DNA of 64,000 nt from a virus (taxonomy: Duplodnaviria > Heunggongvirae > Uroviricota > Caudoviricetes). Numbering within the stretch: position 1 is the first letter of the stretch; the number at the start of each line of letters is the position of its first letter. The notes beneath the pieces were generated by a model. It was given only the letters and a program-made list of their open reading frames with translations, had not been told where the DNA came from and searched no databases. The translations under genes and the position numbers were made by a program. Location: the IMG/VR virus record IMGVR_UViG_3300028591_000125, one strand, 5' to 3'. Positions 18,271 to 45,789 of the stretch are shown in pieces.

Positions 18271-20949
18271 CTATTTTTTAAATTTAACACAGACTTTTTC
18301 TTCCTTATCAAGATTTACGTCAACCTTGCTTTTTCCGCCCGTCGATTCTTCAAGTAGTTTATCACAAATAGGATCTTCAACCCATTTTGCAATACCTCTA
18401 CTTAAATCTCTAGCTCCATAATTCAGATCAAGCTCGGAGATAATTTTATCACGAACAGAATCAGAAACAGTTAAAGTAAATCCTTTTCCCTTTAATCTAT
18501 CTGCAAGTTTCTTAAGCTCAAGAACATAAATCTTTTTCATCTCTTCTTTGCCTAAGCTATTAAAGATTACTATTCCTGAAAAACGATTTATAACTTCAGG
18601 ACGGATTCTCTTCTTAATAGCTTTCATAACAATTTCTTTTGTCATAGCTTTCTTATCTTCAAGACCAAATCCAATTCCTTTTCCGTGAGCCTCTAATTCT
18701 CTAGTTCCATCGTTACTAGTGAATATAAAGATACAATCCTTAAAACTAACTTCTATACCATTACTAAGCGTTATAAATCCGGTTGTCAAGATATTAAGGA
18801 AGATAGTATTTAAGATCTCATCACACAACTTATCAGCCTCATCAACTAAGATTAATTGTTGTGGTCTTTCTCTTACTTTATCGAAAAGAGCCACTTCACC
18901 AAATCCTACATAACTCGGAGGTGCACCAATCAATTTAGTTACAGTATGAGGTTGACTGAGTTCTCCACAATCTATTCTTAACATAGCTTTCTCAGATCCA
19001 AAAATCGTCTTAGCTATTTCTTCAGCCAAATAAGTTTTTCCAGTTCCAGTACCTCCCGAAATATAGAGACTTGGTGGAATATTCTCATCACGAAGGCCTA
19101 AGAATTGTTTTGAAAGAAGTTTAGTTACTACCTCAATACACTCATCCTGACCAATAATACGCCCTTTCAAAGTTTCCGACATTGATCTGAGCTTATCTAT
19201 ATCCGGACTTAGTATTTTTTCTATCGGGACATTAACAAGCTCTGAAACTACCGTCGCTACATCTTCGGGCGTAACTTCGGTCTTTTTACGTGTAGCTTTT
19301 AATTCCTCTAATCTAGTTTCAAGTTCTTTCTGCTTGCTTCTTTCATCAGCTGCTCTATCATAATCTTCTTTTTCCAGATACTTGACTTTCTTCTCTTTAA
19401 CCTTCTCTATTTTTTCGACAAGTGCTTTTTCTCTAGATGAATCTATAGGCCGTTCAAGTTTAGCACGAGCACCAGAAACATCCATCAAATCAATAGCACG
19501 GTCTGGACTATTTCTATCGTACAAATATTTTTCAGAAAGTCTAACACAAGTCATTAGAATATCATCAGAATACTCAACTCCATGATACTCTGAATATTTC
19601 TCCTTAAGTCCTTTCAGTATTTCAAAAGTTTCTTCTTTACTAGGCTCTTCTATATAAACTTTCTGGAATCTTCTTTTAAGTGCACCATCCTTTTCTATAT
19701 ACTTCTTATATTCATCATAAGTAGTCATAGCAATAAGAGTAAGTTCACCTCTAGACAATCCAGGTTTAAGCATTTGAGATATATCAGAAGAACCCTCAGA
19801 AACAGCTGCATGAAATTCATCCACAACTAAAATTATGTTTCTATTATTAGTCGCTTCTTTACATACATCCTGAATTCTTTGCTCGAGTTGACCTCTATAC
19901 ATACATCCAGCTGTTAATGTTGTAACTGAAAGACTAATAATTTTCTTTCCCTTTAGTTGATTTGGAACATCGTCGTTTGAAATCTTTTGAGCTAGATATT
20001 CAATAAGAGCTGTTTTTCCTGCACCAGCCTTACCAATAACCATAGCATTGTTTTTCTTACGACAACAAAGTATTTCAATAATCTGATTTACTTCTTTTTC
20101 TCTTCCAATTACCTTATCGTATTTTCCATCTTTAGCGAGTTGAGTCATATTAATACCAAACTCATCTAAAGCGGGCGTTGAAGAATTAGGATCAGTTTTC
20201 TTAGTGTGTATATCTTTTACCTGACCAGCTTTTTCAAACTCCTCAGAATTATACTCACCACTTCCACTTCCTTCTTTTGAATCATTGTCGGAACTTGAAC
20301 CAGTTGGAAAACCTGGGAATCCTAAAGACTTTGCTAAATCTCCAAATCCCATACTTTCTAAGAACTTTCCGAAATTAGCCATATCATCATCGCTTATTTT
20401 TCCTTCATCAGCTTTAGATTCATTAACACCTAAAACTTGATGAGAAATAGTTTCAAATAAACTTGATACATAAGGCTGTTTACTAAATCCGTGAATAATA
20501 AGTTCCTTAACATAATCCAAGTTATCATCATCGTAAAGAATACTCAGAATAAAATCATCCAACACATTATCTTCAGGTTTAGTTAATAGCAATCCATAAG
20601 TTTTCAGACTACGAATTCTATTAAGATGCGAATCTAGATTCTTAGAAATTATTAAAGACTCATTAAATATGAGAGAGGATTCTATTTTATGTTCTTTCAT
20701 CGTCTTTCTACTTATTTTCTTAAGCTTAGAAAGAAGATCCTCTTGGTCCTCCTCAGACAACTTCTTCAATAATTTACAAGTAATTTCTCCTCCTTTTACT
20801 TTGAACTTATTATCTATACAGTACTTAATACTGTTATAAACAAAAGTCTCTGTGTAAATTTCCGAACAAAAATTAAGTTTAGATTCTTTTACAGAAATAT
20901 CAAAAACGTCTTTCAATGCTCCTGTAAGTTCAATTCTTGATTCACTCAT
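18271..20949 (-). CDS. ClpA/ClpB/ClpC-like double-AAA+ ATPase (chaperone/unfoldase)
   Basis: Two Walker-A regions are present (VIGKAGAGKTALIEYLA, ISGGTGTGKTYLAEEIA), with a Clp-type second-domain GAPPSYVGF-like segment. The ORF-track Met at 21009 lies inside the promoter motif, so I moved the start to the second Met (MSESRIEL) at 20949. Confidence 0.7.
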   Translation of the reverse strand: MSESRIELTGALKDVFDISVKESKLNFCSEIYTETFVYNSIKYCIDNKFKVKGGEITCKLLKKLSEEDQEDLLSKLKKISRKTMKEHKIESSLIFNESLIISKNLDSHLNRIRSLKTYGLLLTKPEDNVLDDFILSILYDDDNLDYVKELIIHGFSKQPYVSSLFETISHQVLGVNESKADEGKISDDDMANFGKFLESMGFGDLAKSLGFPGFPTGSSSDNDSKEGSGSGEYNSEEFEKAGQVKDIHTKKTDPNSSTPALDEFGINMTQLAKDGKYDKVIGREKEVNQIIEILCCRKKNNAMVIGKAGAGKTALIEYLAQKISNDDVPNQLKGKKIISLSVTTLTAGCMYRGQLEQRIQDVCKEATNNRNIILVVDEFHAAVSEGSSDISQMLKPGLSRGELTLIAMTTYDEYKKYIEKDGALKRRFQKVYIEEPSKEETFEILKGLKEKYSEYHGVEYSDDILMTCVRLSEKYLYDRNSPDRAIDLMDVSGARAKLERPIDSSREKALVEKIEKVKEKKVKYLEKEDYDRAADERSKQKELETRLEELKATRKKTEVTPEDVATVVSELVNVPIEKILSPDIDKLRSMSETLKGRIIGQDECIEVVTKLLSKQFLGLRDENIPPSLYISGGTGTGKTYLAEEIAKTIFGSEKAMLRIDCGELSQPHTVTKLIGAPPSYVGFGEVALFDKVRERPQQLILVDEADKLCDEILNTIFLNILTTGFITLSNGIEVSFKDCIFIFTSNDGTRELEAHGKGIGFGLEDKKAMTKEIVMKAIKKRIRPEVINRFSGIVIFNSLGKEEMKKIYVLELKKLADRLKGKGFTLTVSDSVRDKIISELDLNYGARDLSRGIAKWVEDPICDKLLEESTGGKSKVDVNLDKEEKVCVKFKK

Positions 20950-21041
20950 ATATTTTGTTTTTATTTTATTTTCTCTATGTATAAGGAAATTAGATCCTTC
21001 ACATAGCAAACTGGACTCTGAGTTTTAAATTCCTTATAAGT

Positions 21042-21257
21042 ATGAAGAAGATAAAAAATATTATAAAGAAGTTTTTTAAAAAAGAAAAAGAAAAGACTTC
21101 AGAAAAAACTAAAGAAACTGAGGGAGCTTGCGGTAAGGTTCCTACTGAAATACCACCTACACTTATTAAGCCCAAAGTTTTTAATGATGAGGTAATATTA
21201 AATGATTTCTTAAGAAAACTAAACGTAATTATTAATTCTAATTCAAAAAGAAAATGA
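21042..21257 (+). CDS. small Lys-rich protein
   Basis: 71 aa ORF. Confidence 0.35.
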   Translation: MKKIKNIIKKFFKKEKEKTSEKTKETEGACGKVPTEIPPTLIKPKVFNDEVILNDFLRKLNVIINSNSKRK

Positions 21258-22042
21258 AAAAAACATTTACAATGAAAGAAATTATCCTGCTATCAATAGT
21301 AGGTGTTCTAGCAATTATCATTCTTTCCTGTTCATTCTACACTGTAAAATCAACACAGCGTGGAGTATTGAGCACATTTGGAAAAATTCATGAAACATCA
21401 ATTTCTGATGGACTACATGCAAAAATTCCTTTTGTTCAGTCGGTGAAGAAAGTTAATGTTCAACAAAAGAAATTTGATGGACAAGAGAACTCTTATACAA
21501 AAGATGTTCAAACGGCAGTAGTAGATTATACTATTAACTATGATCTTGTTCGTGAAAATGTAAGTAATCTTATGAAGAATGTTGGTGAAGACTACCACAA
21601 TAGAATCGTAGTACCATTCATTAGAAGTACTATGAAAGATATTTTTGGTAATTATGCAGCAACAGAAATAGTAGCTAATCGAGATAACGTTCGTAGAGAT
21701 ATAGAAAATACACTACGTCATACTCTTGATAGTAATTATTTCATGAATATTCAATTTCAAATTACAGAAATTGATTTTGATGATGCATTTGAAAATGCTA
21801 TTAAAGAAAAACAGGTAGCTGAACAGAATGCATTGAAAGCAAAAAATGTTACTATCCAAGTTGAAGAGCAAGCTAAACAAACTAAGATTAGAGCAGAGGC
21901 CGAAGCTGAGGCAATGAGAATTAAAGCACAGGCCCTTGAACGTAATCAGAAGCTTGTCGAATATGAGGCTGTTCAAAAATGGGATGGACAAATGCCTACA
22001 TATATGATGGGAAATAGTATGCCATTCATAAACTTAAAATAA
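21254..22042 (+). CDS. SPFH/band-7 (prohibitin/HflK-like) membrane protein
   Basis: 262 aa ORF with an N-terminal TM helix. It carries an SPFH core (TVKSTQRGVLSTFGKI...) and an Ala/Glu-rich coiled-coil tail. Confidence 0.65.
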   Translation: MKKTFTMKEIILLSIVGVLAIIILSCSFYTVKSTQRGVLSTFGKIHETSISDGLHAKIPFVQSVKKVNVQQKKFDGQENSYTKDVQTAVVDYTINYDLVRENVSNLMKNVGEDYHNRIVVPFIRSTMKDIFGNYAATEIVANRDNVRRDIENTLRHTLDSNYFMNIQFQITEIDFDDAFENAIKEKQVAEQNALKAKNVTIQVEEQAKQTKIRAEAEAEAMRIKAQALERNQKLVEYEAVQKWDGQMPTYMMGNSMPFINLK

Positions 22043-22043
22043 A

Positions 22044-22325
22044 ATGCCCGTTCTAATTATTCTTATCGTCGCTATTACAATCATCTTAGTTTCTTATATT
22101 CACCATAAGTTTGAATTAATTAAAGAAACCAAAAAGAGTTCAGAGTATCTCAATCTAAAACAATTAAAAGAAACAGTTGAGACACTTACAACAACACTAG
22201 ATGATGTGTGCACTAAAATAGCAGACAAAAATTTTCATCAAGAAGATAGAGTAAAATACAAAGAAACACTTAAAGCAACTTTAGCGAAGTGTAAAGAAGT
22301 GAATGATAGTATTGAGCTCTACTAA
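22044..22325 (+). CDS. hypothetical protein with N-terminal TM helix
   Basis: 93 aa ORF. Confidence 0.45.
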   Translation: MPVLIILIVAITIILVSYIHHKFELIKETKKSSEYLNLKQLKETVETLTTTLDDVCTKIADKNFHQEDRVKYKETLKATLAKCKEVNDSIELY

Positions 22326-22377
22326 TTGAAATAAGATCCTGGATTTTTCTGGGATCTTTTATTTTCCTTATATATAG

Positions 22378-25121: not shown

Positions 25122-25909
25122 TTTGTAGTTATTATATTTGTTTTAATATTTTTCTCTATGAACTTTTTATATGCAGGTATAATTAAAGGATGTAATGATC
25201 TAAACAATCCTACATAAAAACCTATAGCATCTTCATCTTTATGCTTATATACAAAATTCAAAAAATTAAAAACATTATTAAATCCAGATCCCATACTCCC
25301 TACTGGAAATAATGTCTCACTCCATGGAAGTTTTACTTTAATAAATTTTAAAAGAGGAGGCTCATCTTTGTTTATAATCAATTCTTCACAAGAATCTTGA
25401 AATAATACCGGCAAACAACTATTCAAAAACTTTAATTGATTAGGATCAATGAGATTAATCTCATCATAAGAAGCAGGTGAACTAGTATTTAAAGGTATTA
25501 TTCGTAAGCAATCTAAAACTTCTTTAGGTATACCTTTAAATACATCAATTTTAGAAAAACTAGTAAAATCATCAATACTTACCTCATTTACATGTATAAT
25601 CTCTAATGTCTCTCTATCTATTACTAAGATATAATTAATTATATAGTTATCACATTTACTTACCCAATCCCACTTCGCCGTTGAAATATTTTCTAATCTA
25701 AAAAGTATTTCTAACTTTTCTGTCAATACCTTAAGCGTATGTGGCATTGAACCTGGAATATCAAAATTCACATGATAAGTATCATATTGACAAGCTATTT
25801 TATTTAATAGATAAAGATAGTTTATTACAACAGATTCTTCTTCAATTATCGTTATCTTAGGCTCTCTTTTAAATATTAAATTATTATCGAAGTATATTTC
25901 ATCAATCAT
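25118..25909 (-). CDS. hypothetical protein
   Basis: 263 aa ORF with ATGA overlap on both sides. Confidence 0.5.
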   Translation of the reverse strand: MIDEIYFDNNLIFKREPKITIIEEESVVINYLYLLNKIACQYDTYHVNFDIPGSMPHTLKVLTEKLEILFRLENISTAKWDWVSKCDNYIINYILVIDRETLEIIHVNEVSIDDFTSFSKIDVFKGIPKEVLDCLRIIPLNTSSPASYDEINLIDPNQLKFLNSCLPVLFQDSCEELIINKDEPPLLKFIKVKLPWSETLFPVGSMGSGFNNVFNFLNFVYKHKDEDAIGFYVGLFRSLHPLIIPAYKKFIEKNIKTNIITTK

Positions 25910-26751
25910 AAGTTTCTATTTTTTATAAACTTAGTAAATTGATCTAAATTCATAAATCCTCCTGCAACTCCTTTATGTCCACCTCCTGAATAATGGTCTT
26001 TCATATACTGTCCACAATTAAATTCAGGAACTCTATCTGGATTTGATGAGAGTGTGAATTTGAATTTTCCGGAAGCATCAAAAGTACCAAATACAAAAAG
26101 ATCATATTCAGAATAAACACAATCAAACTGTAATGATGTTTTTACTGGAGTTATCAAACAAATTCCTTTATACAGATTATTTACAGTGATTGGGATACTA
26201 GAGCTTTTTACTATATTCTCCCAGTCTTGCTTTAGATACTTTAGAATAAGCTTACCTTCTAATAATAAATCGGCCGGCTCAAAATCTAAAATTTCGTCTG
26301 GTAATTCTAGGCCGTATCTTGTTCTCAGCGCATATTGAAACGGTAATACTTCAGAAATCCATCCAAACCGAGCTTTATCAAACACATCATAGGCGCTGAT
26401 AAATTCTACGGCCTTAGGTACAGACGTCTTCATAAAATATTCCCAGGCTAATTCACACGCCCCTCTTCCGATTTCTCTTTTACCGGGAACATCAGAATAG
26501 CCAAAACTTTCTGAATCTTTAACGGCTGTAATATGATGATCTACCCACTCTAATTTTGATTTCAGTTCTAACATATTTTGAACTGGAAAACTTATATCAA
26601 CCATAACAATTTTTTCATATCGATCTAAGTTCTCTGGTATAGGATCACCATAAGTCCATCCTAAAGTCTCTGCTTCGGGATAATGTCTTTGTGTGATTAA
26701 TCTAGAACAAATACCATCAAAATCTACTGAATGATAAATAATTAAAATCAT
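25906..26751 (-). CDS. DHH-family phosphoesterase (NrnA/RecJ-like fold)
   Basis: 281 aa ORF with IYHSVDFDG...MVDISF...DHH in the order of DHH motifs I-III. Confidence 0.55.
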   Translation of the reverse strand: MILIIYHSVDFDGICSRLITQRHYPEAETLGWTYGDPIPENLDRYEKIVMVDISFPVQNMLELKSKLEWVDHHITAVKDSESFGYSDVPGKREIGRGACELAWEYFMKTSVPKAVEFISAYDVFDKARFGWISEVLPFQYALRTRYGLELPDEILDFEPADLLLEGKLILKYLKQDWENIVKSSSIPITVNNLYKGICLITPVKTSLQFDCVYSEYDLFVFGTFDASGKFKFTLSSNPDRVPEFNCGQYMKDHYSGGGHKGVAGGFMNLDQFTKFIKNRNL

Positions 26752-27476: not shown

Positions 27477-29369
27477 TTAAGCGTATGTAATTTTCGTGGT
27501 TTTATTTTTCAATGCTGCATTAGTTACTATCTTTCCTAATTTAACAGCAAACTCAGATAAGTCTTTTGAAAGATCAATGAACTTATTAGCTCCGTATATA
27601 CTCTCTGCTTCTCCATATCCTTCTATCAAAATACCAAAAATCTCCATATCAAAGTTCTTTTCAGCTTTTTCAATTTTCCTTTTGGTATCATTATTAGCTT
27701 CTTTTCCCCAATAATCATTTGCACAGGGTTCACCATCAGATAGAACAAACATAGTACAGTGAGATTTAGTATATTTTCTAATATCTTTTGCAATAGTTAA
27801 AATTGCTTGACCGTCTCTATTTTCTTCTCTTGCTTTAATTTTGCTTAATGAAAATGGATTCTTGTCTTTAGGTGAGCAATAACAAGTTACTTCTGTTGAA
27901 CATCTTTTAAGAGTATCTGCTGTATGCCCATAAATAAATAATTCAACACCAGGTATGTTACTAAAGGCTTCATACATTAATACTGCAGTTTCTCTAGCAC
28001 TTCTGATTCTACCACCATAACTCATTGATGCTGATTCATCAACTACTATACAAATTGCAGTAGAATTAGTTCTAACCTGTCCTTGTCTGACATAAACGTG
28101 TTGTTCACCTTGATAAGCCTCAGCTAATTTTGTAGTATCTAATAAACCAGACCTACATCCTCTTATATCGAAATCAAAATTTTTATCCTTAACAAATACG
28201 AGCTTTTTTAATGCCGGTACATAAGGTAATATTTTTTTTCTAATTTCAAAATAATTAGACTTATCACTCTCAAAAATTATTCCTGCTTTTTTTACATAAG
28301 AATCATCGGGATACTCAACTACATCACCATTAAGTATATCACAAAAGTTTACTAGTTCTTCTTCTTCTCTTACTAAATCATCTGCAATTGGAGAAGTGCG
28401 ATATACATAATCACCTTTATTCAATGAGGCATCTTTTCCGGTATATACATCTCTGAAGAAATCAAATTCAATTGCTTTGAGTATTCCACATAACTCACTA
28501 TTTAAGTAATCATCACGTTTTTCATAATCAGAGACATCATACATTGAGTACAATTCATTCATTACGAATTCAACAATTAGATCTGAGGTAGTACAACTTA
28601 ATTTTGTATTAGATGAGTCACTATAAATAGGTTCTACAATGTCTAATATTTTATTAGTCTGTTCTTCAGATAGTAATGTTGATCCTGGTGTCTGAGATCT
28701 AAATCTTATGATATTTACTACATCTTTAATTAACTGTAAACATTTGTCTTTTTGAGTCTCAGATAAAAACTCACTCTGTTCATAATCAAATTTATTCAAT
28801 TTATCAATATAAACCGAGTATCCAGGCCTCTCCATTAATAATCGATTTTCTACTCTCTCATCTTCTAATATATTAACGAATATCTCAGATAGATAAGAAC
28901 TAACGGAAAGTTTTTTATCACATATTTTTCTAAGTTCAAAATATTTTCTTAATGTTCTTAGTTCAGTATATTTTAGATGTGCAGATTCATGTACACCAAT
29001 AGAACACATGCAGTCTAATTTTTCCTCTGTAGTTTTTTTCAGATTCAAAACAGCTGTAGGTAAGAACATATATACATACTTACTAGATCTTCTTGATCCT
29101 AACTCTCTAGTAAAAGCAAGTTTGATCTGAAAAGGAAAATCTAATATAACTATAGTATCATAAATTGTTTTGTATGAGGTTCGTAGTATGGTTTTTGATT
29201 CTTCATCCATACCTTTTCTATATGAATGAGAATCATAATAACCACCGTAATCTTTTAGGTATGACCAGGAACTACTCTTATAAAAAGTAGAACTATCATA
29301 ACCTAATGATGATTTATAAGTTACTCCACCTCTAAATTTATTTTTAAATGCAGTACTAAAATCTGACAT
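27477..29369 (-). CDS. von Willebrand factor A (VWA) domain protein, CobT/CbbO/NorD-like partner of AAA+ ATPase
   Basis: 630 aa ORF. The C-terminal VWA has a MIDAS-like VVDESASMSYGG...IYGHTADT segment. Confidence 0.65.
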   Translation of the reverse strand: MSDFSTAFKNKFRGGVTYKSSLGYDSSTFYKSSSWSYLKDYGGYYDSHSYRKGMDEESKTILRTSYKTIYDTIVILDFPFQIKLAFTRELGSRRSSKYVYMFLPTAVLNLKKTTEEKLDCMCSIGVHESAHLKYTELRTLRKYFELRKICDKKLSVSSYLSEIFVNILEDERVENRLLMERPGYSVYIDKLNKFDYEQSEFLSETQKDKCLQLIKDVVNIIRFRSQTPGSTLLSEEQTNKILDIVEPIYSDSSNTKLSCTTSDLIVEFVMNELYSMYDVSDYEKRDDYLNSELCGILKAIEFDFFRDVYTGKDASLNKGDYVYRTSPIADDLVREEEELVNFCDILNGDVVEYPDDSYVKKAGIIFESDKSNYFEIRKKILPYVPALKKLVFVKDKNFDFDIRGCRSGLLDTTKLAEAYQGEQHVYVRQGQVRTNSTAICIVVDESASMSYGGRIRSARETAVLMYEAFSNIPGVELFIYGHTADTLKRCSTEVTCYCSPKDKNPFSLSKIKAREENRDGQAILTIAKDIRKYTKSHCTMFVLSDGEPCANDYWGKEANNDTKRKIEKAEKNFDMEIFGILIEGYGEAESIYGANKFIDLSKDLSEFAVKLGKIVTNAALKNKTTKITYA

Positions 29370-29374
29370 ATATA

Positions 29375-30589
29375 TTAATAGCTAGTTAAAAGTTTGAATA
29401 CAGTGCTTCGTTCACCCTCTACTTTCGTTCCTTCATAGATTGGTAAATAAACGGCTTGCATTGCGTCTCCAATTGACCAACCATCTGAAACTAATTCAGC
29501 AACCATTAAAGATTCACGAACACTAGGACAACAAGATAATTCCTGTTTCTTAGCCAAAGATCTTATGTTATTGGCTATCTTAACTATAATTTTAGCAAGA
29601 TCTGATTTTATATTTGTTCTTTTTACTAGAACATCTACTTCTTCAGTCTCTGGTATATAGTTAAGCTCCAGTGGGAAGAATCTATTAACTAGTGCTCTAT
29701 CCATAGAATTAGTTCCTGAATATTCAGCACCAACATTTGCAGTTGCTATAAAAGTAACTTCTGGATGTATCTTTATATCTCTAACACCTTTTCCACAAGC
29801 TATTTCTACGCTTAAACTTCTTCTCTCATCAAGACAAGGAAATAATATATTCATTGCAGTTTGAGGTGCTCTAGAAAGTTCATCAAGAAGAATCACACCA
29901 GGCTCTTGAATAACCTTAGTGAAGTTAGCATAATCAAATACACTTTCTCCTCCTTCTAATCTGTGAACTCCTAAAAGCGACGATATAGGATCTAACATAC
30001 TTCCCATATCAAACACATGAAGATTAAGTCCAAGTCTTTCACATAATATTTTTATACAACTTGTTTTTCCAGTACCAGCAGGTCCTAATATCAAAGTATT
30101 AACTTGCTTCTTTATATTTCTAGCTAGTAATTTCCAATCATTACTTTGCATAAAAAAGCCGTCATCCTTAGAAGTAGGTGCCTTAAAGTAAGAATCTTTT
30201 GATAGAGTTTTATAAAGAGTTATAACCTCTTCTTTTTCTTCTATCACAGGTTCTTCGGTTTTTGTAGAACGATCTTCTACTTCAATTTCTACTTCTTCTA
30301 CTTTTTCTTTTTTTATTTCTAAAGACTCCATAAGCTTTTTATATTCATCTTTTATTACTGTTGCTGTAGTATCTGACACTACATATACACGTCCTTTATA
30401 ATAGGTTGCACCAGAAGACAGTGAAACAGTAGTTGGATGACGATATGAAAAATATATGGTATCAGTAGAAGAAGACCTAATTGTTTTAGAACAACTAACT
30501 CTACAAGTTACATCTAATCCTTGGCCAGGTAATGGATAAATCGAAATTTTTCCTTTCTCTAATTTTCCAGTATAAAAATAATAACTCAT
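29375..30589 (-). CDS. MoxR/CbbQ/CobS-like AAA+ ATPase
   Basis: 404 aa ORF with Walker A LILGPAGTGKTS, Walker B ILLDELSRA and a sensor region ATANVGAEYSG. It sits directly upstream of the VWA gene. Confidence 0.65.
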   Translation of the reverse strand: MSYYFYTGKLEKGKISIYPLPGQGLDVTCRVSCSKTIRSSSTDTIYFSYRHPTTVSLSSGATYYKGRVYVVSDTTATVIKDEYKKLMESLEIKKEKVEEVEIEVEDRSTKTEEPVIEEKEEVITLYKTLSKDSYFKAPTSKDDGFFMQSNDWKLLARNIKKQVNTLILGPAGTGKTSCIKILCERLGLNLHVFDMGSMLDPISSLLGVHRLEGGESVFDYANFTKVIQEPGVILLDELSRAPQTAMNILFPCLDERRSLSVEIACGKGVRDIKIHPEVTFIATANVGAEYSGTNSMDRALVNRFFPLELNYIPETEEVDVLVKRTNIKSDLAKIIVKIANNIRSLAKKQELSCCPSVRESLMVAELVSDGWSIGDAMQAVYLPIYEGTKVEGERSTVFKLLTSY

Positions 30590-36835: not shown

Positions 36836-36906
36836 TGTCCTATCGTATAAAGGTAGTACAACAGATTTTGGTTCTGTTGGTCTTGGTTCGATTCCAGGTA
36901 GGACAA
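36836..36906 (+). tRNA. tRNA, anticodon UUG (Gln) by my fold; UUU (Lys) under an alternative anticodon-stem register
   Basis: Acceptor TGTCCTA/TAGGACA, D-stem GTAT/GTAC, anticodon stem ACAGA/TCTGT with loop TTTTGGT, T-arm CTTGG-TTCGATT-CCAGG. Confidence 0.6.
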
Positions 36907-36932
36907 CAATAAATTTTGAGAGTTTAAAAATT

Positions 36933-37007
36933 GGTGTGTTAGTTCAGTTTGGTTAGAATACATGCCTGTCACGCATGGGGTCACGGGTTCGAGTCCCGTA
37001 CACACCG
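36933..37007 (+). tRNA. tRNA-Asp (GUC)
   Basis: Acceptor GGTGTGT/ACACACC, anticodon stem CATGC/GCATG with loop CTGTCAC, T-loop TTCGAGT. Confidence 0.75.
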
Positions 37008-37062
37008 CATAAAAAAATAGATTGGATTAATTCCTTTCTATTTTTTATTTTCCTTATATATA

Positions 37063-37381: not shown

Positions 37382-38086
37382 TTAATTTTCTATCTTTATT
37401 TTTTCTCCCGTTCTTAAATATCTAATCCCCTCATCATCATCTAACCAAAAACACTGCCTACAATCTAAGCATACAGTATTTCCTTCTATTCTCGGTACTT
37501 CTCTTTGTTGCGTGTGTCCTACTATCTGCTTCTCCCAGTCTGTAAATCGATACTCCCTTATATCAGACCAAACAGGAGAACCACCACGATCATCTCCTCC
37601 TCTATACCAAGAACAATAATTTAACGGCTTTATGATTCGACTTTTATCTAGGGTCTGAATCTCTTTGCCGGCTATATCTGAAATTCCTAGTCTCCCTATA
37701 TCCTCTAACCAGTATCTATTAAACCCGGCATGACTTAAGACCCAAGAACCAAGTCGTAAACCTAAATATAAATCCCCAGACTCTTTAAATAACGATAAAG
37801 CTGAATCAAATATAGAATAATCACACCTATCTCTACATATCTTAAGTTCTGGCCATATATAAGTACAGTCATGATTCCCTACTAAAAGCTTCACCCCAGG
37901 ATTTTTCTTCTTCACTTCTATAATCTCTGAAAAATTATATAAAGCTTCACAACCACTTATCCCTTCATGTTCATACGGGTCTAAGTAATCTCCTAAAAAC
38001 ACAGTAGGAACACCAGACTCTATGTACGATAACGCCTCTTTCCAAAAATTCCTTCCATGTACGTCAGGTATTATAATCAATTTCAT
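37382..38086 (-). CDS. Ser/Thr-type metallophosphatase (lambda-phosphatase/calcineurin-like)
   Basis: 234 aa ORF with DVHG, GDYLDPY and GNHD motifs. Confidence 0.65.
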   Translation of the reverse strand: MKLIIIPDVHGRNFWKEALSYIESGVPTVFLGDYLDPYEHEGISGCEALYNFSEIIEVKKKNPGVKLLVGNHDCTYIWPELKICRDRCDYSIFDSALSLFKESGDLYLGLRLGSWVLSHAGFNRYWLEDIGRLGISDIAGKEIQTLDKSRIIKPLNYCSWYRGGDDRGGSPVWSDIREYRFTDWEKQIVGHTQQREVPRIEGNTVCLDCRQCFWLDDDEGIRYLRTGEKIKIEN

Positions 38087-39392: not shown

Positions 39393-39803
39393 TCACGCCA
39401 TTTCTTCCCTTACCCACTTAACTATCTTCTTTAACAACTCCTCCTCTACTTCTTTATCTTTTATATTTACTAACACCTTCTCTCTTATCTCCTCCTCTAT
39501 GTTAGTCGCAAAGAAAGAGTTAACATAAATACGAACTCTAGAATGAACACGAACTTTAGAAGTTACTGGATAATACCTCTCAAAAATATCATATAATTTC
39601 TTTACAAGATTAAACGGCATCTTCTTATATACACCATCATTATTATCACACGAAAAACAAAAATCTACTAACGCAAAATATGGATTAGTGTGAATAGCTG
39701 ACTTCATTTTATCAGTTAAATCAGATACAGGGACTAGAAATAACGTAGACTTTAAATATCTACTACTAATTGAACTTTTATAACAAATACTTAAACTACT
39801 CAT
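39393..39803 (-). CDS. hypothetical protein
   Basis: 136 aa ORF. Confidence 0.5.
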   Translation of the reverse strand: MSSLSICYKSSISSRYLKSTLFLVPVSDLTDKMKSAIHTNPYFALVDFCFSCDNNDGVYKKMPFNLVKKLYDIFERYYPVTSKVRVHSRVRIYVNSFFATNIEEEIREKVLVNIKDKEVEEELLKKIVKWVREEMA

Positions 39804-40668
39804 TTTTTATATTCTCTTTTCTGGATATATCAAAAACACGTTCCTCAGCTATTTTAACTAAATAATTAAATATAGCTTTTCCAGTTCTAGATGAAACGCC
39901 TATGTAATTCTTTTGATACAAGTTTTTAACATCAGCAGCAATTTCTCCCCAAATTTCTTTACCTATATCATCCATCTTTTCATAGTTTTCTAAGGCTTCT
40001 TCGGTTGCTTTTATCTTAGCATCAATATTAGCTCTACTTTGTTCTTCTGTAAAGTTTATTAAGGTTTCATTAAAGTACAATATAGCCCTAGTTTTCCAAG
40101 GATTCTTTTCTAACCATTCTTTTTCAATTTCTTCAGGAATATCATTAAAATATGGATTAGATAGTATACAATTATTTTCTATATTACTCTTAATTAAAGT
40201 ATACCACAACTTAAAAGATTCTCTAATGCGCAGATTATAAATATTCTCCTCTTCTTTATTATATTCAGGGTATTTCTGTAATTCTTCTATTATACTGGTT
40301 TTATGAATTTTATATAATTCTTCTGGTCTTTCTAAGGTATTTAAAAGATAGCATTTAATATTCTCTATATACTTCTCTTTTGTTGTAGCTATAATATTTT
40401 GAATTACATTAAAACCATTTATTATTTCTTCATTATAATAAAACCATTCATAAGAATCAGGTAAGAGGTATTTAGAAAATCTTTTATGTAGGTAATTTTC
40501 TAATTCAGTGTCTCCTTCTCGTTCTTGTAATAATTTAAATCCATAATTATGTGTTTTATATTGATTTTCTCTAGATTCTTTAAATGGTTTACTTGAATAT
40601 CCTATTTTTAATATATCAACAAAGTTTCCATTATCATCTTTATAACAATCTTGTATTAAATATATCAT
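39796..40668 (-). CDS. hypothetical protein sharing an 85-aa C-terminal module with the adjacent helicase-like gene
   Basis: INFTEEQSRANIDAKIKATEEAL...VAADVKNLYQKNYIGVSSRTGKAIFNYLVKIAEERVFDISRKE is near-identical to a segment of 40671..42746. Confidence 0.5.
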   Translation of the reverse strand: MIYLIQDCYKDDNGNFVDILKIGYSSKPFKESRENQYKTHNYGFKLLQEREGDTELENYLHKRFSKYLLPDSYEWFYYNEEIINGFNVIQNIIATTKEKYIENIKCYLLNTLERPEELYKIHKTSIIEELQKYPEYNKEEENIYNLRIRESFKLWYTLIKSNIENNCILSNPYFNDIPEEIEKEWLEKNPWKTRAILYFNETLINFTEEQSRANIDAKIKATEEALENYEKMDDIGKEIWGEIAADVKNLYQKNYIGVSSRTGKAIFNYLVKIAEERVFDISRKENIKNE

Positions 40669-40670
40669 AA

Positions 40671-42746
40671 TTAATTTCCTTTCTTATTTATTATTTCAAA
40701 CCCATGCTCCCATTTACCATCTGAATTCTTAATTTTGACTGACTTTAATTCAAAAAATTCCTCTAAGTCTGAAGCTTTTGGTGTTTTTGTTATTCCATTC
40801 TCTTTATATAATTTCCCCAATGTTTCTTTTATCTGTTTAGTAGTATATTTAGAACCAATGGAGAAAATAGATTCAATTATATTAGATTCTTTTGCTTTCT
40901 CTAAATTACTAATATTCTCTATTTCTCTTATAATCTCTAATTCTCTAAACCCATTAGCCTTCATTCTATCAAATCCTAATATATTTATGTAATTTTCATA
41001 AGATCTGGGAATAAAAGAACTAATAAAATCTCCAAATTGTTTAAATAATTGAGGGTATTGTTCATGATAATCATATATACACCTCATCCTAGGTTCAAAA
41101 CTATTAGGCAAGGATTCGTATTTCTCTTTAAATTCATAGAACAAATCTTTTAGTGCGTCAGAGGTTTTGTTTTCATCTGAAGCATCTAGATTATATCCTT
41201 GAATTGACTCTATACCTCTTTTAATAGTTATATCATCTTGATACTCTTTTCTAGATACATCAAACGCTCTTTCTTCTGCTACTTTAACCAAATAATTAAA
41301 TGTAGCCTTTCCAGTTCTAGATGAAACGCCTAAATAATTCTTCTGATATAAATTTTTAACATCGGCTGCTACAGTTGACCAAGATAATTTCTCTTCTTCA
41401 GACATTTTCTCATACCCAGCTAAAAGTCTCTCAGTTTCTTTTATCTTAGAATCAATATTAGCTTTACTTTGTTCTTCTGTAAAGTTAATAGAAGCTTCAT
41501 CTTTAGATCTTGCCTTATATAAGAATAAAACTTCATTTCTAAATACATTCTCCTTTAATCTTTGTCGTCCTAGAATTTGAGGAAGATCCAAAGAAATATC
41601 TACGGTTAATGTTTTTATATTACAGTCTGAACAAATAATAGTATAAGCACAAGTAGAATAAAAATCAGCACCTAGATAAGAAGTCCTAGTACAAAGTGTA
41701 AACATTTTATGAGCTTCCCCTTGTACTGGTATTTCTCCTATCTTATGACCTACTTTCTTGAGTTTTCCAATATTAACAGTAGAATCTGAACATATTATAT
41801 TTGTCTCCTCCGGTTTTAATCCATTCCTCCTTATTATATGACAAATAGTATTAACAGAATTAACAAATATAACGAGCTCCTTAGATTCTTTTAAGGTACC
41901 GTCTTGAAGTACTTTGTTAGGATAAACTCCTTTTCTATAGTTATCTATCCATTCTTTTAATACTGTTCCTATGTTTCTGGTAATTCTTCTTTCTACCTTA
42001 ACGTGCTCTATTCTACTATCTGGCCACTTCAATTTGTACATAGGGAGATCTTTAAAATAATTCAATTTCCCTAAGTATTTTTCTAACATTGGGGTAGCTG
42101 ATAAGTATAGCACATTCTCACAGTCATAAAGATCGTTGACGAAATCAAGTTCTACGGTCGCTTTAAAAGTTGCGTCCATGAAAATTGACTGAAACTCATC
42201 AACAACTATGGCATAACTCTTTGGATCAATTCCATAACTTTTAAAGACATCAAGGATATGGTGAAGAGAATCATATGTAACAATAATCTTAAAAGGTTCA
42301 TTACTTTTAGAACATTCCTTAAGATAATTAGTTAGGTTTATCTTAAGTCTTGTCATATACGATTCCTTCTCAACATCACTTAACTCAGAAATTTTATCTT
42401 TAATTTCTTGAGTTTTTTCTTTCTTCTCCTCTTCTGTCATGTCAAAGGGAAAATCATAAACAATAGATTCCTCTTCATTTCTGAAATAATAAATACGTCT
42501 TAATCCTTTATTTTGGCCATCTTCACTATTATGTTGCTTCTCTTTGTTCTCTAATAATGCTTTTCTAGGGGAACAAAGAATAGTGGGAATATCATTATTT
42601 AAACAATATTCTGTAAAACCACAACCACAAATAGTTTTATCTAAGATTAAATGACCTTTAGGATAAACAAATTCTTTCCATTCACTAATATATTCTATCT
42701 CATCTGGGACAGCTATTAGATTAACAGTTTTTTCTAAATTTTCCAT
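40671..42746 (-). CDS. SF2 (DEAD/DEAH-like) helicase-family protein with atypical motif I
   Basis: 691 aa ORF. VVDEFQ (motif II), LSATP (III), LCTRTSYLGADF (V) and ILGRQRL (VI) are present. The Walker-A position reads CGCGFTEY. Confidence 0.55.
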   Translation of the reverse strand: MENLEKTVNLIAVPDEIEYISEWKEFVYPKGHLILDKTICGCGFTEYCLNNDIPTILCSPRKALLENKEKQHNSEDGQNKGLRRIYYFRNEEESIVYDFPFDMTEEEKKEKTQEIKDKISELSDVEKESYMTRLKINLTNYLKECSKSNEPFKIIVTYDSLHHILDVFKSYGIDPKSYAIVVDEFQSIFMDATFKATVELDFVNDLYDCENVLYLSATPMLEKYLGKLNYFKDLPMYKLKWPDSRIEHVKVERRITRNIGTVLKEWIDNYRKGVYPNKVLQDGTLKESKELVIFVNSVNTICHIIRRNGLKPEETNIICSDSTVNIGKLKKVGHKIGEIPVQGEAHKMFTLCTRTSYLGADFYSTCAYTIICSDCNIKTLTVDISLDLPQILGRQRLKENVFRNEVLFLYKARSKDEASINFTEEQSKANIDSKIKETERLLAGYEKMSEEEKLSWSTVAADVKNLYQKNYLGVSSRTGKATFNYLVKVAEERAFDVSRKEYQDDITIKRGIESIQGYNLDASDENKTSDALKDLFYEFKEKYESLPNSFEPRMRCIYDYHEQYPQLFKQFGDFISSFIPRSYENYINILGFDRMKANGFRELEIIREIENISNLEKAKESNIIESIFSIGSKYTTKQIKETLGKLYKENGITKTPKASDLEEFFELKSVKIKNSDGKWEHGFEIINKKGN

Positions 42747-42819
42747 AATTTCTAATTTTTAAAATTCTGGCACAGGCCCCTGGAAAGGGCCCTGGCCTGT
42801 ATTTCATATATAAGAAATA

Positions 42820-43160: not shown

Positions 43161-43185
43161 CCTTTCCAGACTTCCAGACCTTTCC

Positions 43186-43220
43186 GAAAAAAAAAGAGTA
43201 ACATCCAAAGACATTACTCT
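43186..43220 (-). terminator. intrinsic terminator of 43214..43630
   Basis: Minus-strand hairpin AGAGTAATGTCTTTGGATGTTACTCT followed by T9. Confidence 0.55.
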
Positions 43221-43630
43221 TTTAAACACTCTTTTAAACTAAATGCATCTTCTAGGTCCTTAAATACCTGATCTATTTCTTTCTTTGCCATCTCATCACC
43301 TCTTTTATAGACAAATGAAAACTGATCATGTGTACCGTCTCTATATTCATGGCATAGAAAACGACCTATACATAAATCATTCATACCTTCTATCTTAACA
43401 AAAGCGATTCCGGTATATTTAAACTTATATGTAAATGGAATTGAAATCCCATATACACTTTCCGTTTCGATATATGGTTGTTGCATTTTACTAGGATAAA
43501 TACAACCTTTAATATATCCTTTAGTACACATTATTTCATTAACCAGGGAACCTATGAATCTACATTTGAAACTAGCCTCTTTATAAAAATCAAATCTTTC
43601 TGCTATAAATAATGGTTGGTTTTTCTTCAT
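43214..43630 (-). CDS. hypothetical protein
   Basis: 138 aa ORF overlapping the upstream gene by ATGA. Confidence 0.5.
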   Translation of the reverse strand: MKKNQPLFIAERFDFYKEASFKCRFIGSLVNEIMCTKGYIKGCIYPSKMQQPYIETESVYGISIPFTYKFKYTGIAFVKIEGMNDLCIGRFLCHEYRDGTHDQFSFVYKRGDEMAKKEIDQVFKDLEDAFSLKECLKE

Positions 43631-45789
43631 ATTTCCCTTAGTTTCCTCTCATAGAATTCATAGCTATTTTCGAGTTTAGCTTGTTTCATTCTATCTTCAG
43701 TCAATGCGTAATCTCCTTTTCCTTCTGTTTCTTTTATAGTTTCGAGGTATTCAGGTTCTAGCATTTTACCTTTTTCGACTAGTTTAAGGGCCAGATTTTT
43801 AATTAGTTTTTTATTAGCTCCTATTATATTCTTAGTTTTATTCACAAGACCCTCATACCAGACTCTAATTTGTGTTTTTATTTCAGTATCATCGAATCCA
43901 TTAGGTATACCGTTATTATTATACAGAACGGCCGGATTGTGATAGTAATAAGGTCCAAAGAATCCGCCAGTATAGATATCATTCGTCATATCTATCATCG
44001 CCGTCCAAAGATCGCTGCCTGAACCAAGTAAAATTCTGTTATTATCTTGGAAAATAATTTCTTCAGCGCAATAACCGGCGATAGATACCATGACGTTTAT
44101 TTCAAGGTCGTATTTAGTATCAATTTCATCATACATTTCGGAATCATGGTATATAGTAATTCCGCCCTTATTAGAATCAACGCCAAGGATAGCATTAGGA
44201 GCTCTACCGGTTAAATAAGACATAACTACAGCGTGTCCAGCCTCATGAACGGAAGATGCGAATTTAAGTTTTCTATTATCCGGGTTTCTAAGTTTACCGA
44301 GTTCAAGTGGTATAATTTTCTCAGAGTCGCCGTAATATATAGTAACTGAATCCTTAGAATATCCAAGTTCAGGGTTTTTCACACCTACTTCCACATTTTC
44401 TTTCATATCTTTAATTAGGATATCAGAGAAAATAGGAGTAAATATAGTTCCGATAGTTGTAAATAGCGGACGTACACCTTGAGCGGGATAGACGCCTTCA
44501 GAGTAAATTAAATCTCTAAAGTCCTGAGTAACTGAGACTTTAATACCAGTAGTTTTAAAGAAGTCGTTGCAGTTCCTATCAATTTCTTTTTTAATAAGTT
44601 CTTCAAAATGGACTTTCTTAAGAGTAGGGTATTTAATTATATTGTTACCTATTCTACTAAGTTGTTCTGGTTTAAATCTTCTAAGTAATGAATCTTTAAT
44701 TTCAGATATAGATACTTTTCTAGTTTCGTCGTAGAATATATCAGCATCAATATCGGGGTTCAAGTCTTTAGAAGCGGGAAAAGCCTCATCCAAATTACCC
44801 AAGACGAATATAAGAGACTTTTTACAATCAATGAAATTAGGAGTATTATATTTAGTTCTACATGCTTTTAGAAACTCAGCAAATTCAATTACAGTTTTGA
44901 ATGAGTTAATTTCGTTGATATAGTCTAAGTATTTTTTATCAGGTTCAATTCCTTTAAGCCTGATAATAAGAGTCCTAAGAATATTTGGTTGTATTATAGG
45001 AAGTTCTCTATAAGGATCTTTTTCTTTTTTACTTTTCTTATCACCACCACTTTCTTCTGTATCTGGTTCATCAAGGTCATCTTCAAATCCTTCTTCTTCA
45101 ATTTCCCATGACTTAGGTTTATAATAGTTAGGGATACCACGGCCGTAATAGAAGAATCCGAGGTTTTCTAATATTTCCTTTACATCTTCTTTTTTAACCA
45201 CATTTCCATTAACAAGTCCCACAGATTCATGACCTTTTGTATATTCAAGGAAGTCATCTATAAAATTGTTAAGGGTATTATAGTCATAGGAAGCGTTATC
45301 CTCATTTAGATTAAGAATTCCAGTATCCATAAGAGTCCAAACAGGTCTTATAGCGGATTTTATTTCAATTTCACAACCAGACTCATCAATAGTTCTAGCA
45401 TATTGGAATTCATCAAAAACAAAAACTAAGTCTTCGGTTAATGTTTTACTTGCTGCAGAGGTTGGTGAGTTTCCGTATCTTGAAATAGAGAAAAATTCAT
45501 TTAAAGTTTCTACTATTGATTTTCCGTTATCACCAGCTTCTTTACCGCAATCGAAGGACATTGTTTTATTTTTTATGTCAAGTAGTTCGATTAGTCTATT
45601 TATTACACTAGTCTTTCCTGTTCCCGTCATACCCCAGAGCGATACTATAACCGGCCTTTGAATAATTTGAGGAGTCACATACCAAGGAGTGACAGCCGTA
45701 ATTATCTTATCAATAATCTCATCAAGGCCGACAAATTCGCTCTTTAATATCTGACGGGCATTTTCAAGTTTTTCTATTCTTTCTTTCAT
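43627..45789 (-). CDS. soluble FtsH-like protein: AAA+ ATPase fused to M41-type zinc metalloprotease domain
   Basis: 720 aa ORF. N-terminal Walker A SLWGMTGTGKTSVINRL. C-terminal HEAGHAVV zinc-binding motif followed by IAGYCAEEIIF and GSGSDLWTA. No TM helix. Confidence 0.65.
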   Translation of the reverse strand: MKERIEKLENARQILKSEFVGLDEIIDKIITAVTPWYVTPQIIQRPVIVSLWGMTGTGKTSVINRLIELLDIKNKTMSFDCGKEAGDNGKSIVETLNEFFSISRYGNSPTSAASKTLTEDLVFVFDEFQYARTIDESGCEIEIKSAIRPVWTLMDTGILNLNEDNASYDYNTLNNFIDDFLEYTKGHESVGLVNGNVVKKEDVKEILENLGFFYYGRGIPNYYKPKSWEIEEEGFEDDLDEPDTEESGGDKKSKKEKDPYRELPIIQPNILRTLIIRLKGIEPDKKYLDYINEINSFKTVIEFAEFLKACRTKYNTPNFIDCKKSLIFVLGNLDEAFPASKDLNPDIDADIFYDETRKVSISEIKDSLLRRFKPEQLSRIGNNIIKYPTLKKVHFEELIKKEIDRNCNDFFKTTGIKVSVTQDFRDLIYSEGVYPAQGVRPLFTTIGTIFTPIFSDILIKDMKENVEVGVKNPELGYSKDSVTIYYGDSEKIIPLELGKLRNPDNRKLKFASSVHEAGHAVVMSYLTGRAPNAILGVDSNKGGITIYHDSEMYDEIDTKYDLEINVMVSIAGYCAEEIIFQDNNRILLGSGSDLWTAMIDMTNDIYTGGFFGPYYYHNPAVLYNNNGIPNGFDDTEIKTQIRVWYEGLVNKTKNIIGANKKLIKNLALKLVEKGKMLEPEYLETIKETEGKGDYALTEDRMKQAKLENSYEFYERKLREI

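Follow-up and report, generated by a model that had tools for sequence, protein, structure and literature searches.

A 64,000-nucleotide stretch of viral DNA (IMG/VR record IMGVR_UViG_3300028591_000125; hereafter, the window) carries a gene at 43627..45789 on the minus strand whose 720-aa product, as judged from its sequence, joins an AAA+ module to an M41 zinc-metallopeptidase domain with an intact catalytic site and has no membrane anchor. This soluble AAA+/M41 fusion protease is the centre of our finding. A sequence-only reading of the same DNA had grouped the gene with those for a ClpA/B-like unfoldase, an SPFH protein and a thioredoxin, as a phage-encoded protein-quality-control set. All four genes are real, according to Pfam matches and ORF calls. 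Rather than forming one group, they are scattered among ~30 unrelated genes on both strands.

The M41 domain forms the C-terminal part of the protein (aa 505-720; 43630..44277, minus strand). Alignment to M41 and conservation of the catalytic residues had been set beforehand as the point on which this assignment could fail, and the assignment survived. Pfam Peptidase_M41 matches aa 513-674 with an E value of 2.8e-6 and 27.7 bits, which is ~2 bits short of the gathering score of 29.9. In an alignment with the YME1 protease domain, HEAGHA is paired with HEAGHA, and GSGSDL with GCGSDL. The zinc-binding/catalytic motif HEAGH is thereby placed at aa 515-519 (44233..44247), aligned to YME1 HEAGH, and the third zinc ligand, Asp593 within GSGSD, at 44011-44013, aligned to YME1 GCGSD (both on the minus strand). 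Across 32 relatives, none of the residues H515, E516, G518, H519, E576 and D593 varies. HExGH and D593 are also the majority residues in 80% or more of 72 relatives from bacteria. The reported lack of a membrane anchor also holds: Kyte-Doolittle hydropathy in a 19-residue window reaches a maximum of only 1.46, and therefore no membrane helix is assigned to the protein.

The N-terminal ATPase module (aa 1-470; 44380..45789, minus strand) is of the Clp/Hsp100 NBD2 type. It has a Walker A motif, GMTGTGKT (aa 53-60; 45610..45633, minus strand), a Walker B motif, FDEFQ (aa 125-129), a sensor-1 motif with its Asn, GNLDEA (aa 331-336), candidate Arg fingers R371 and R379, a sensor-2 motif of the GxRP form, GVRP (aa 438-441), and a ClpB_D2-small-like lid (aa 390-468). 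Walker A is invariant in the 32-relative alignment, as are the Walker B, sensor-1, Arg-finger and sensor-2 residues, and all of these are conserved in 72 bacterial members. The closest folds are the NBD of human CLPB/Skd3, ClpA, ClpB NBD2 and ClpX, and Pfam finds no match to PF00004 (classic AAA) in this half. Thus, the earlier description of an AAA module joined to M41 is correct in that an AAA+ module is fused to an intact M41 domain, but the motor is Clp-D2-like, and the term "FtsH-like" applies to the C-terminal half only. An insert of ~150 aa (aa 160-320; 44830..45312, minus strand), consisting of a helical domain and a disordered acidic linker (aa 226-255), separates Walker B/helix 3 from sensor-1, and no known fold was matched by it. 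A Foldseek search of BFVD gave no full-length structural twin; the top TM-score, 0.40, was to a giant-virus FtsH.

The pore-loop position, which is GYVG in Clp and FVG in FtsH, reads GDNG in the 720-aa protein (context KEAGDNGKS). A conserved aromatic residue is absent from this position in 32 phage and 72 bacterial members, and canonical substrate threading is therefore doubtful. The ATPase may be a switch or remodeller instead of a threading motor. Torsins are likewise AAA+ proteins without pore-loop aromatics.

At an E-value threshold of 1e-30, the family comprises 975 clusters at 50% identity, nearly all of them with proteins of 650-760 aa and full-length matches. Viral members occur at 74 IMG/VR loci, on contigs of up to 401 kb, and further relatives lie on metagenome contigs of 332-416 kb. 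In GTDB genomes, 155 stretches with bacterial members were confirmed by tblastn, and the cultured bacteria with a member include Ohtaekwangia, Chryseolinea, Aquiflexum and Xanthomarina. The family is thus hosted by viral contigs of 100-400 kb and by chromosomes of Bacteroidota and Ignavibacteria. In a neighbor-joining tree, the phage sequences are monophyletic with respect to the bacterial ones. A tblastn search of the 720-aa protein against the 50,697 phage records of INPHARED produced nothing at an E value of 1e-5 and only noise at 5. Public databases label members as "FtsH" or "hypothetical protein." The family is large, unnamed and undescribed, is common to a gut jumbo-phage lineage and Bacteroidota, and marks a lineage of gut phages with 100-400 kb.

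Gene context was counted at 79 bacterial loci. An RtcB-family gene is found at 21 of these, and at 18 of the 21 it is upstream on the same strand within ~800 nt; in nine of the RtcB-bearing loci, a PrfH gene (with an RF-1 domain) lies between RtcB and AAA-M41. A WYL-WCX regulator gene is present at 29 loci, mostly adjacent upstream of AAA-M41, DUF2779 at nine, and a Band_7 gene at five. The bacterial AAA-M41 gene thus has two recurrent settings: directly behind RtcB or RtcB-PrfH, and adjoining a WYL regulator, with DUF2779 present or absent. RtcB2-PrfH has been shown experimentally to rescue and repair damaged ribosomes, and it acts against ribotoxins, colicin E3 among them (PMC9304027, PMC9223846). 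An AAA-M41 gene is not named as a third component in the main text of a comparative survey of RtcB-PrfH (PMC6514570). Neither RtcB nor PrfH was found in the 64-kb window. When 82 phage loci were clustered, RtcB was within 10 kb of AAA-M41 in one clade only (L053/L068).

This context suggests what the protein may do. As the best explanation overall, which is tentative and in our judgment somewhat short of an even chance, we propose a cytosolic, self-contained ATP-dependent zinc metalloprotease that takes part in responding to damaged RNA or impaired translation and that serves phages in counter-defence or clean-up. The 720-aa protein would form a Lon- or FtsH-like ring in which ATP drives or gates the entry of substrates to the M41 chamber. 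Ancestrally, the family would have served in the response to RNA or translation damage. The two-gene system for ribosome repair sets nascent chains free without a tag and leaves the toxin untouched. In the RtcB-PrfH setting, the protease might clear the polypeptides released from damaged ribosomes, or destroy the ribotoxin; it is thus a candidate, on the strength of gene order, for clearing nascent chains released by that system. The phage lineage presumably acquired the gene once. During infection, the protease might counter host attacks on translation or clean up after them, and the M42 aminopeptidase described below may trim the resulting peptides. Our best guess for the role in infection, a counter-defence or translation-damage protease, is an extrapolation from the bacterial gene context. 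A bolder form of the proposal, that an unrecognised class of soluble AAA+ metalloproteases is the proteolytic third component of RtcB-PrfH, captured once by gut jumbo phages for use against ribotoxin-type abortive-infection defences, is possible but on the whole unlikely. The tight operon linkage with RtcB-PrfH in Bacteroidota makes this a directly testable hypothesis.

The Clp-type ORF (18271..21009, minus strand) encodes 912 aa from a TTG start, or 892 aa from an ATG at 20949 (18271..20949). The 892-aa product is a ClpC/ClpA-like double-AAA unfoldase that has the two AAA+ modules and the IG(F/L) loop in D2 of the ClpA/ClpC class. Its Pfam domains are AAA, AAA_lid_9, AAA_2 and ClpB_D2-small, it matches phrog_4871 with 580 bits, and among NCBIfam models it scores 554 bits with ClpB and 500 bits with ClpA, both under the equivalog cut-offs. 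The NCBIfam matches listed all start at aa 253 or later, and the Clp_N (Clp R) domain, for which a profile check had been suggested, was not detected among the Pfam matches listed. The protein also has a short UVR-like middle region. Where ClpA has its IGL ClpP-docking loop, an IGF loop (GKGIGFG) precedes RPEVINR, and residues I759-G760-F761-G762 are invariant across three phage copies of the ClpC-like protein.

The SPFH gene (21254..22042, plus strand) is divergent from the Clp gene and encodes a membrane-anchored protein of 262 aa. The profile check suggested for this protein gave PF01145 (Band_7) at 100 bits; an N-terminal hydrophobic helix spans aa 10-28 (Kyte-Doolittle value of 2.9). Comparison with PDB yielded prohibitin at 72 bits and HflK at 47 bits, making it prohibitin/HflK-like. 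SPFH modules have reportedly been linked to RNA repair. A place for the window protein among RNA-repair-associated Band_7 proteins was considered and rejected, because it resembles prohibitin and HflK and shares only 21% identity with the Band_7 protein near bacterial RtcB operons. The HflK/C (SPFH) complex encloses membrane FtsH, and regulation of FtsH by SPFH proteins had been offered as an analogy for the window. This analogy does not carry over: the protease is soluble, the SPFH gene is 21.6 kb from it on the opposite strand, and 80 related phage loci have no SPFH gene closer than 10 kb to AAA-M41. The analogy lacks a structural basis here because the 720-aa protein is without a transmembrane and periplasmic part.

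The thioredoxin gene (46110..46436, plus strand) is divergent from the AAA-M41 gene and starts ~320 bp beyond 45789, the stated end of the stretch originally flagged. It encodes 108 aa with the motif WCGPC (PF00085, 84 bits). A thioredoxin gene is near AAA-M41 in one related contig, with no conserved linkage across the 80 loci, and a ClpC-like gene is near it in three of the 80. The idea of a quality-control set as a conserved unit is thus not borne out; the genes for the ClpC-like unfoldase, the SPFH protein and the thioredoxin are accessory genes in their own right and not partners in a conserved module.

Three other genes lie near AAA-M41. A 138-aa ORF (43214..43630, minus strand), whose start overlaps the AAA-M41 stop by 4 nt, is probably co-transcribed with it; no homologues were found in Pfam, NCBIfam or PADLOC, or by tblastn in related loci. 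A 691-aa protein (40671..42746, minus strand), a loose recurrent neighbour with no family match, clusters with a T5orf172 protein, and the merged cluster is present in six of 19 phage clades at variable distance and orientation. A TET-type M42 aminopeptidase of 352 aa (51608..52666, minus strand; Pfam Peptidase_M42, 184 bits) is absent from the list of the sequence-only reading.

The window also contains an RNA-repair-type kit (an RlaP nucleotidyltransferase, phosphoesterases and 10 tRNAs) and a MoxR-vWA pair. When 20 kb of the window were searched by megablast, only tRNA-sized segments matched. Host contamination or a bacterial origin was considered and rejected in view of the tRNA arrays, the mostly orphan ORFs and the relatives on IMG/VR contigs; an HNH endonuclease between the topoisomerase genes of the window is further evidence against it. 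The phage origin of the window is one that we infer, because the window ORFs tested yielded neither a capsid nor a terminase gene.

The M42 gene bears on a different explanation, in which AAA-M41 and the ClpC-like protein, with its IGF loop on host ClpP, degrade host or misfolded proteins, and M42 then converts the products to amino acids for phage synthesis. M42 recurs near AAA-M41 in four of 19 phage clades, at 5.8 kb in this window and ~3 kb in a related locus (L028), and 25 of 51 M42-bearing IMG/VR contigs share both genes. Two other clades (L001, with 59% identity, and L031, with 40%) have the ClpC-like, M42 and AAA-M41 genes together in ~10 kb; this much of the proteolysis programme put forward previously is retained, without its unlinked SPFH and thioredoxin members. 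The invariant IGF loop of the phage ClpC-like proteins points the same way. However, M42 is >100 kb from AAA-M41 in the largest clade, the ClpC-like, SPFH and thioredoxin genes show the sparse linkage given above, and co-occurrence in one phage lineage may reflect shared ancestry. In bacteria, moreover, the orthologues have RtcB and WYL as linked genes instead of Clp or M42. We therefore consider such a turnover programme doubtful. Also improbable, and ranked below it, is a nucleotide-gated enzyme that, instead of degrading processively, would serve as a site-specific processing protease or a remodeller: a Clp-like ring without pore aromatics, as in torsins, would act as a switch or in the disassembly of one defined complex, and M41 would cut one or a few specific targets, such as a host defence effector or regulator. 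Against this, the ATP-hydrolysis motifs are all intact, and the M41 fold is that of the processive FtsH. PADLOC matched no model to the phage 720-aa protein and no defence model beyond a weak DolB match in two bacterial members.

Other jumbo-phage AAA+ chaperones, namely ClpA/ClpX, BCS1 and MoxR-vWA, have been proposed to function in morphogenesis (PMC7824862). By extension, the 720-aa protein could be a virion-assembly chaperone-protease for the maturation or quality control of structural proteins, and the MoxR-vWA pair in the same window and the detection of PA5oct FtsH by ESI-MS/MS are consistent with such a role. However, PA5oct FtsH is a member of another family, which is membrane-bound, structural genes were not detected near AAA-M41 in the window or related loci, and the chromosomal bacterial orthologues in RtcB/WYL operons have no virion to build. 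This function is very unlikely. The response to RNA or translation damage remains the reading that we prefer.

The textbook ATP-dependent proteases of bacteria are FtsH, Lon, ClpXP/ClpAP, HslUV and the proteasome. A widespread and catalytically intact combination of a Clp-type motor with an FtsH-type protease, with no anchor and no aromatic pore loop, would extend this list of architectures, and one must then ask how such an enzyme takes hold of its substrates. The protein resembles FtsH/Yme1 (MEROPS M41) in its C-terminal M41 fold, with HEXXH and the third-ligand Asp in G-x-x-x-D, in the conserved glutamate of AEE, and in carrying ATPase and protease on a single polypeptide. Unlike FtsH/Yme1, its motor is of the Clp NBD2 type with a sensor-2 arginine and D2-small lid, not PF00004; it lacks transmembrane helices, a periplasmic domain and the FVG pore loop, and has the 150-aa insert. 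Compared with Clp/Hsp100 NBD2 proteins (ClpB NBD2, CLPB/Skd3, ClpA D2, ClpX, HslU), it has no GYVG and has a big insert before sensor-1; it is also fused to its own protease, whereas they dock on ClpP or HslV or act as disaggregases. Lon has a Ser-Lys protease domain and a long N-terminal substrate-binding domain, in contrast to the zinc M41 domain here.

A phage-encoded soluble FtsH-like protein was new to the sequence-only reading. However, canonical membrane FtsH homologues were already reported for the Pseudomonas jumbo phages PA5oct and MIJ3 (gp342/gp107), with function unknown (PMC6892783, PMC7318152). These are likewise M41 ATP-dependent proteases encoded by jumbo phages. PA5oct FtsH is of the membrane type (FtsH_ext, AAA, AAA_lid_3 and M41, the last with 155 bits), whereas Pfam finds no FtsH_ext in the 720-aa protein, and the two are 27% identical over just 89 residues around the zinc site. 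The described RtcB2-PrfH system has two genes, neither of which the phage window carries; the likeness to its setting lies in the bacterial family members, whose genes directly follow RtcB or RtcB-PrfH in the same orientation.

The 720-aa AAA-M41 protein (43627-45789, minus strand) carries an M41 protease domain in its C-terminal part, on which Pfam, NCBIfam and an alignment to YME1 agree. The Pfam Peptidase_M41 profile matches aa 513-674 (profile positions 12-181 of 191; E = 2.8e-6) with 27.7 bits, a score 2 bits under the curated cut-off. An NCBIfam FtsH model matches aa 510-675, and in a phmmer search of the PDB aa 510-597 align to the protease domain of YME1, with HEAGHA opposite HEAGHA and GSGSDL opposite GCGSDL. 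In FtsH structures, the latter motif holds the third zinc ligand. Residues H515, E516, G518, H519, E576 and D593 are invariant in a 32-sequence alignment, HExGH and D593 are conserved also in 72 bacterial relatives, and an AlphaFold2 model built from 32 relatives has a mean pLDDT of 80.7. Thus, the region aligns to M41 by profile methods and its catalytic residues are conserved, so the M41 assignment made in the sequence-only reading holds. The peak 19-residue hydropathy of the protein is 1.46, so it has no membrane helix, which bears out the proposed lack of a membrane anchor.

The description "FtsH-like," however, fits the protease half and not the ATPase half (aa 1-470), which has no match to PF00004 in Pfam. 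Its matches are weak and mostly of the Clp type: ClpB_D2-small (aa 390-468), Torsin and AAA_22 in Pfam, the D2 modules of ClpC and ClpB in the PDB, the C-terminal ends of the ClpA, ClpB and ClpV models in NCBIfam, and the phage Clp family phrog_4871. Fold comparison of the ATPase half with individual motors gave values of 21.9 for the human CLPB/Skd3 NBD, 20.4 for ClpA, 19.8 for both ClpB NBD2 and ClpX, and 17.9 for HslU. Walker A (GMTGTGKT), Walker B (FDEFQ), sensor-1 (GNLDEA), sensor-2 (GVRP) and the stretch RFRxEQIxRxGN, which includes the candidate arginine fingers R371 and R379, are all invariant in the 32-sequence alignment. The ATPase half is not FtsH-like. These features identify the 720-aa protein as a predicted soluble, catalytically intact fusion of a Clp-NBD2 motor with M41. 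It is predicted to be an ATP-dependent protease with an undescribed domain pairing, and does not fully qualify as an FtsH homologue.

The AAA-M41 family is large, unnamed and spans jumbo phages and Bacteroidota. A word-indexed search recovered >1,400 relatives, and the top 120 are nearly all 690-743 aa long, with 94-100% query coverage, and lie on contigs of up to 416 kb. An exhaustive profile search at E <= 1e-30 gave 975 clusters (50% identity), nearly all of equal length and matching end to end. In IMG/VR, 74 viral loci encode AAA-M41, many of them on contigs of 200-401 kb. No significant match to the 720-aa protein was found among 50,697 deposited phage records, and BFVD holds no full-length structural twin. 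Among GTDB species genomes, 155 matches were confirmed, which share 26-32% identity and come almost entirely from Bacteroidota, Ignavibacteria and Kapabacteria. Cultured Ohtaekwangia and Chryseolinea are represented among them by multi-megabase contigs and scaffolds, and cultured Aquiflexum, Xanthomarina, Belliella and Chryseobacterium by assemblies. In a neighbour-joining tree, the 32 phage sequences are monophyletic with respect to the 72 from bacteria. Source names of members are "hypothetical protein," "Peptidase M41 domain-containing protein" or "cell division protease FtsH," and NCBIfam has no model that spans the whole family.

Bacterial gene context is the strongest functional clue available. 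When the ORFs of 79 bacterial loci were clustered and the clusters named by Pfam, AAA-M41 was found in operon linkage with RtcB-PrfH or with WYL regulators. The RtcB RNA ligase gene occurs in 21 of the 79 loci; it lies upstream on the same strand in 18 of the 21, either abutting or overlapping AAA-M41 or ~640-800 nt away with an intervening gene. Nine of those RtcB loci encode a 210-aa RF-1-domain protein (PrfH) between RtcB and AAA-M41. A WYL-WCX regulator gene is present in 29/79 loci, adjacent upstream in most, with a DUF2779 gene directly downstream in 3 of the 29; Band_7 genes occur in 5/79. Two operon types can be recognized in Bacteroidota and Ignavibacteria, RtcB-(PrfH)-AAA_M41 and WYL/WCX regulator-AAA_M41-(DUF2779), and examples of such bacterial operons are L105:2715-7000, L116:3554-7028 and L084:1775-6393.

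RtcB2-PrfH has been characterized experimentally: RtcB2 re-ligates 16S rRNA cut by colicin E3, and PrfH frees peptide from ribosomes that contain the cut rRNA (PMC9304027, PMC9223846). A comparative survey of PrfH neighbourhoods describes TPR, Pol-beta NTase and zinc-ribbon accessory genes, and its main text does not name AAA-M41 or a protease as a third RtcB-PrfH gene (PMC6514570). The bacterial neighbours link the AAA-M41 family with damage to RNA or translation and with stress regulators that sense ligands, and the RtcB-PrfH linkage is the most valuable lead of this analysis. Among phages, RtcB is near AAA-M41 in one clade only. A small, translation-related IF1/eIF-1a-like gene lies beside AAA-M41 in four phage clades other than that of the window (L003:12891-13109, and loci L010, L068 and L071).

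The window is AT-rich (G+C ~31%), and most of its ORFs match no known family. None of the ORFs tested was recognized as a capsid or terminase gene, and we infer phage origin from these mostly unmatched ORFs, the viral-contig relatives, a ligase-like gene, 10 tRNA genes in two clusters (36836-37008 and 48404-51210) and a split pair of topoisomerase II subunit genes (53185-54900 and 57146-58498, plus). The gene that splits this pair encodes an HNH endonuclease (55506-56765, plus) and resembles an inserted homing endonuclease gene. The downstream tRNA cluster is in two parts, between which lies the gene for a BspA-type leucine-rich-repeat protein (LRR_5; 49069-50202, minus), and a listed 197-aa ORF (50711-51304) that overlaps the tRNA array is probably spurious. 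An RlaP nucleotidyltransferase (32859-33935, plus) and three phosphoesterases (Metallophos, phrog_547 and DHH-type; at 37382-38086, 15804-16445 and 25906-26751, all minus) together look like an RNA-end-healing kit. RlaP nucleotidyltransferases are associated with RNA-ligase pathways; the window itself yielded no RNA ligase. The gene for a MoxR-type AAA+ ATPase (404 aa; AAA_5 and CbbQ_C) immediately precedes that for a 630-aa protein matching CobT_C/vWA weakly (pair 27477-30589, minus), and the two resemble the MoxR-vWA chaperone pair of group 2.2 jumbo phages (PMC7824862).

The sequence-only reading grouped AAA-M41 with a Clp protein, an SPFH protein and a thioredoxin (46110-46436, plus) as a protein-quality-control set. 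Pfam and other searches confirm that all three proteins are real. The proposed interval begins with the Clp-type ORF (18271-21009, minus; 912 aa from a TTG start, 892 aa from the ATG at 20949) and ends with the AAA-M41 ORF, and the two are separated by ~30 further ORFs on both strands. The Clp protein falls in an established phage family (phrog_4871, 580 bits), and ClpA and ClpX occur in jumbo phages (PMC7824862). The Clp protein is ClpC/ClpA-like, with two AAA+ modules and a short UVR-like middle region. Where ClpA has its IGL loop, it carries an IGF loop that does not vary among three phage copies, and docking on a ClpP is probable. The SPFH protein (21254-22042, plus) is membrane-anchored and prohibitin/HflK-like. 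A 93-aa ORF (22044-22325, plus), whose product starts with a hydrophobic helix, begins 1 nt past the SPFH stop codon and may encode a membrane partner; it does not resemble NfeD.

Every window ORF was compared with 80 related phage/metagenome loci, covering 10 kb on each side of AAA-M41. The Clp gene is near AAA-M41 in 3/80 loci (L001/L002 and L031), thioredoxin in one related contig only (L001/L002), and SPFH in none of the 80. The proposed SPFH-protease partnership is unsupported and would also lack a structural basis, because AAA-M41 lacks the membrane/periplasmic part of FtsH. Across 19 protease clades (at least 70% identity within each), the most widely recurring neighbour is common to at most six. 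A 691-aa orphan family (40671-42746, minus) is a loose neighbour in 6/19 clades, in a cluster merged with the adjacent 290-aa T5orf172/MUG113 protein (39796-40668, minus), whose C-terminal ~110 residues resemble an internal part of the orphan family. An M42 (TET-type) glutamyl aminopeptidase absent from the proposed set (51608-52666, minus; 184 bits) is encoded 3-9 kb from AAA-M41 in 4/19 clades. It recurs near AAA-M41 and ClpC-like genes in L001, L028 and L031, adjoining the ClpC-like gene in L031 and L001; the M42 and AAA-M41 genes share 25 IMG/VR contigs, usually >100 kb apart. These sparse counts indicate a loose, lineage-limited proteolysis theme of ClpC-like protein, M42 and AAA-M41, and no conserved module. 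The earlier observation is thus confirmed and its interpretation supported in part: the soluble AAA+/M41 fusion stands, whereas the SPFH partnership and a conserved set lack support.

We tentatively favour a reading in which AAA-M41 would form a ring that degrades protein with ATP, its ancestral role would be a response to RNA or translation damage, and phages might deploy it as a counter-defence or clean-up protease. That AAA-M41 instead works with the ClpC-like protein and M42 in a phage programme of protein turnover is unlikely, although the loose theme formed by the three genes is consistent with it. The position of the Clp GYVG pore loop (EAGYVGED in ClpX) is occupied by KEAGDNGKS, and no conserved aromatic residue is found there in the 32 phage or 72 bacterial members, a departure from every described relative. 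The missing pore loop suggests a nucleotide-gated specific processing enzyme or remodeller, which we consider rather improbable; a function of AAA-M41 in virion assembly is more improbable by far.

FtsH genes in phages MIJ3 and PA5oct were reported in 2019-2020 (PMC6892783, PMC7318152), and tblastn with an E. coli FtsH protease-domain query detects one in about a dozen Pseudomonas jumbo phages. Unlike the window protein, PA5oct FtsH is a canonical membrane FtsH (FtsH_ext, AAA, AAA_lid_3 and M41); the two share 27% identity over 89 residues only, and their gene arrangements differ. Upstream of PA5oct FtsH (locus L295, MK797984.1 174475-176890) is a gene annotated "FtsH-interacting integral membrane protein" with a weak Bax1-I match. 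Nothing in the records and literature searched contradicts the earlier impression that no soluble phage M41 protease has been described. The 720-aa protein shares its single-chain logic with Lon, its motor family with Clp, and its protease with FtsH, to which it joins a motor other than that of FtsH.
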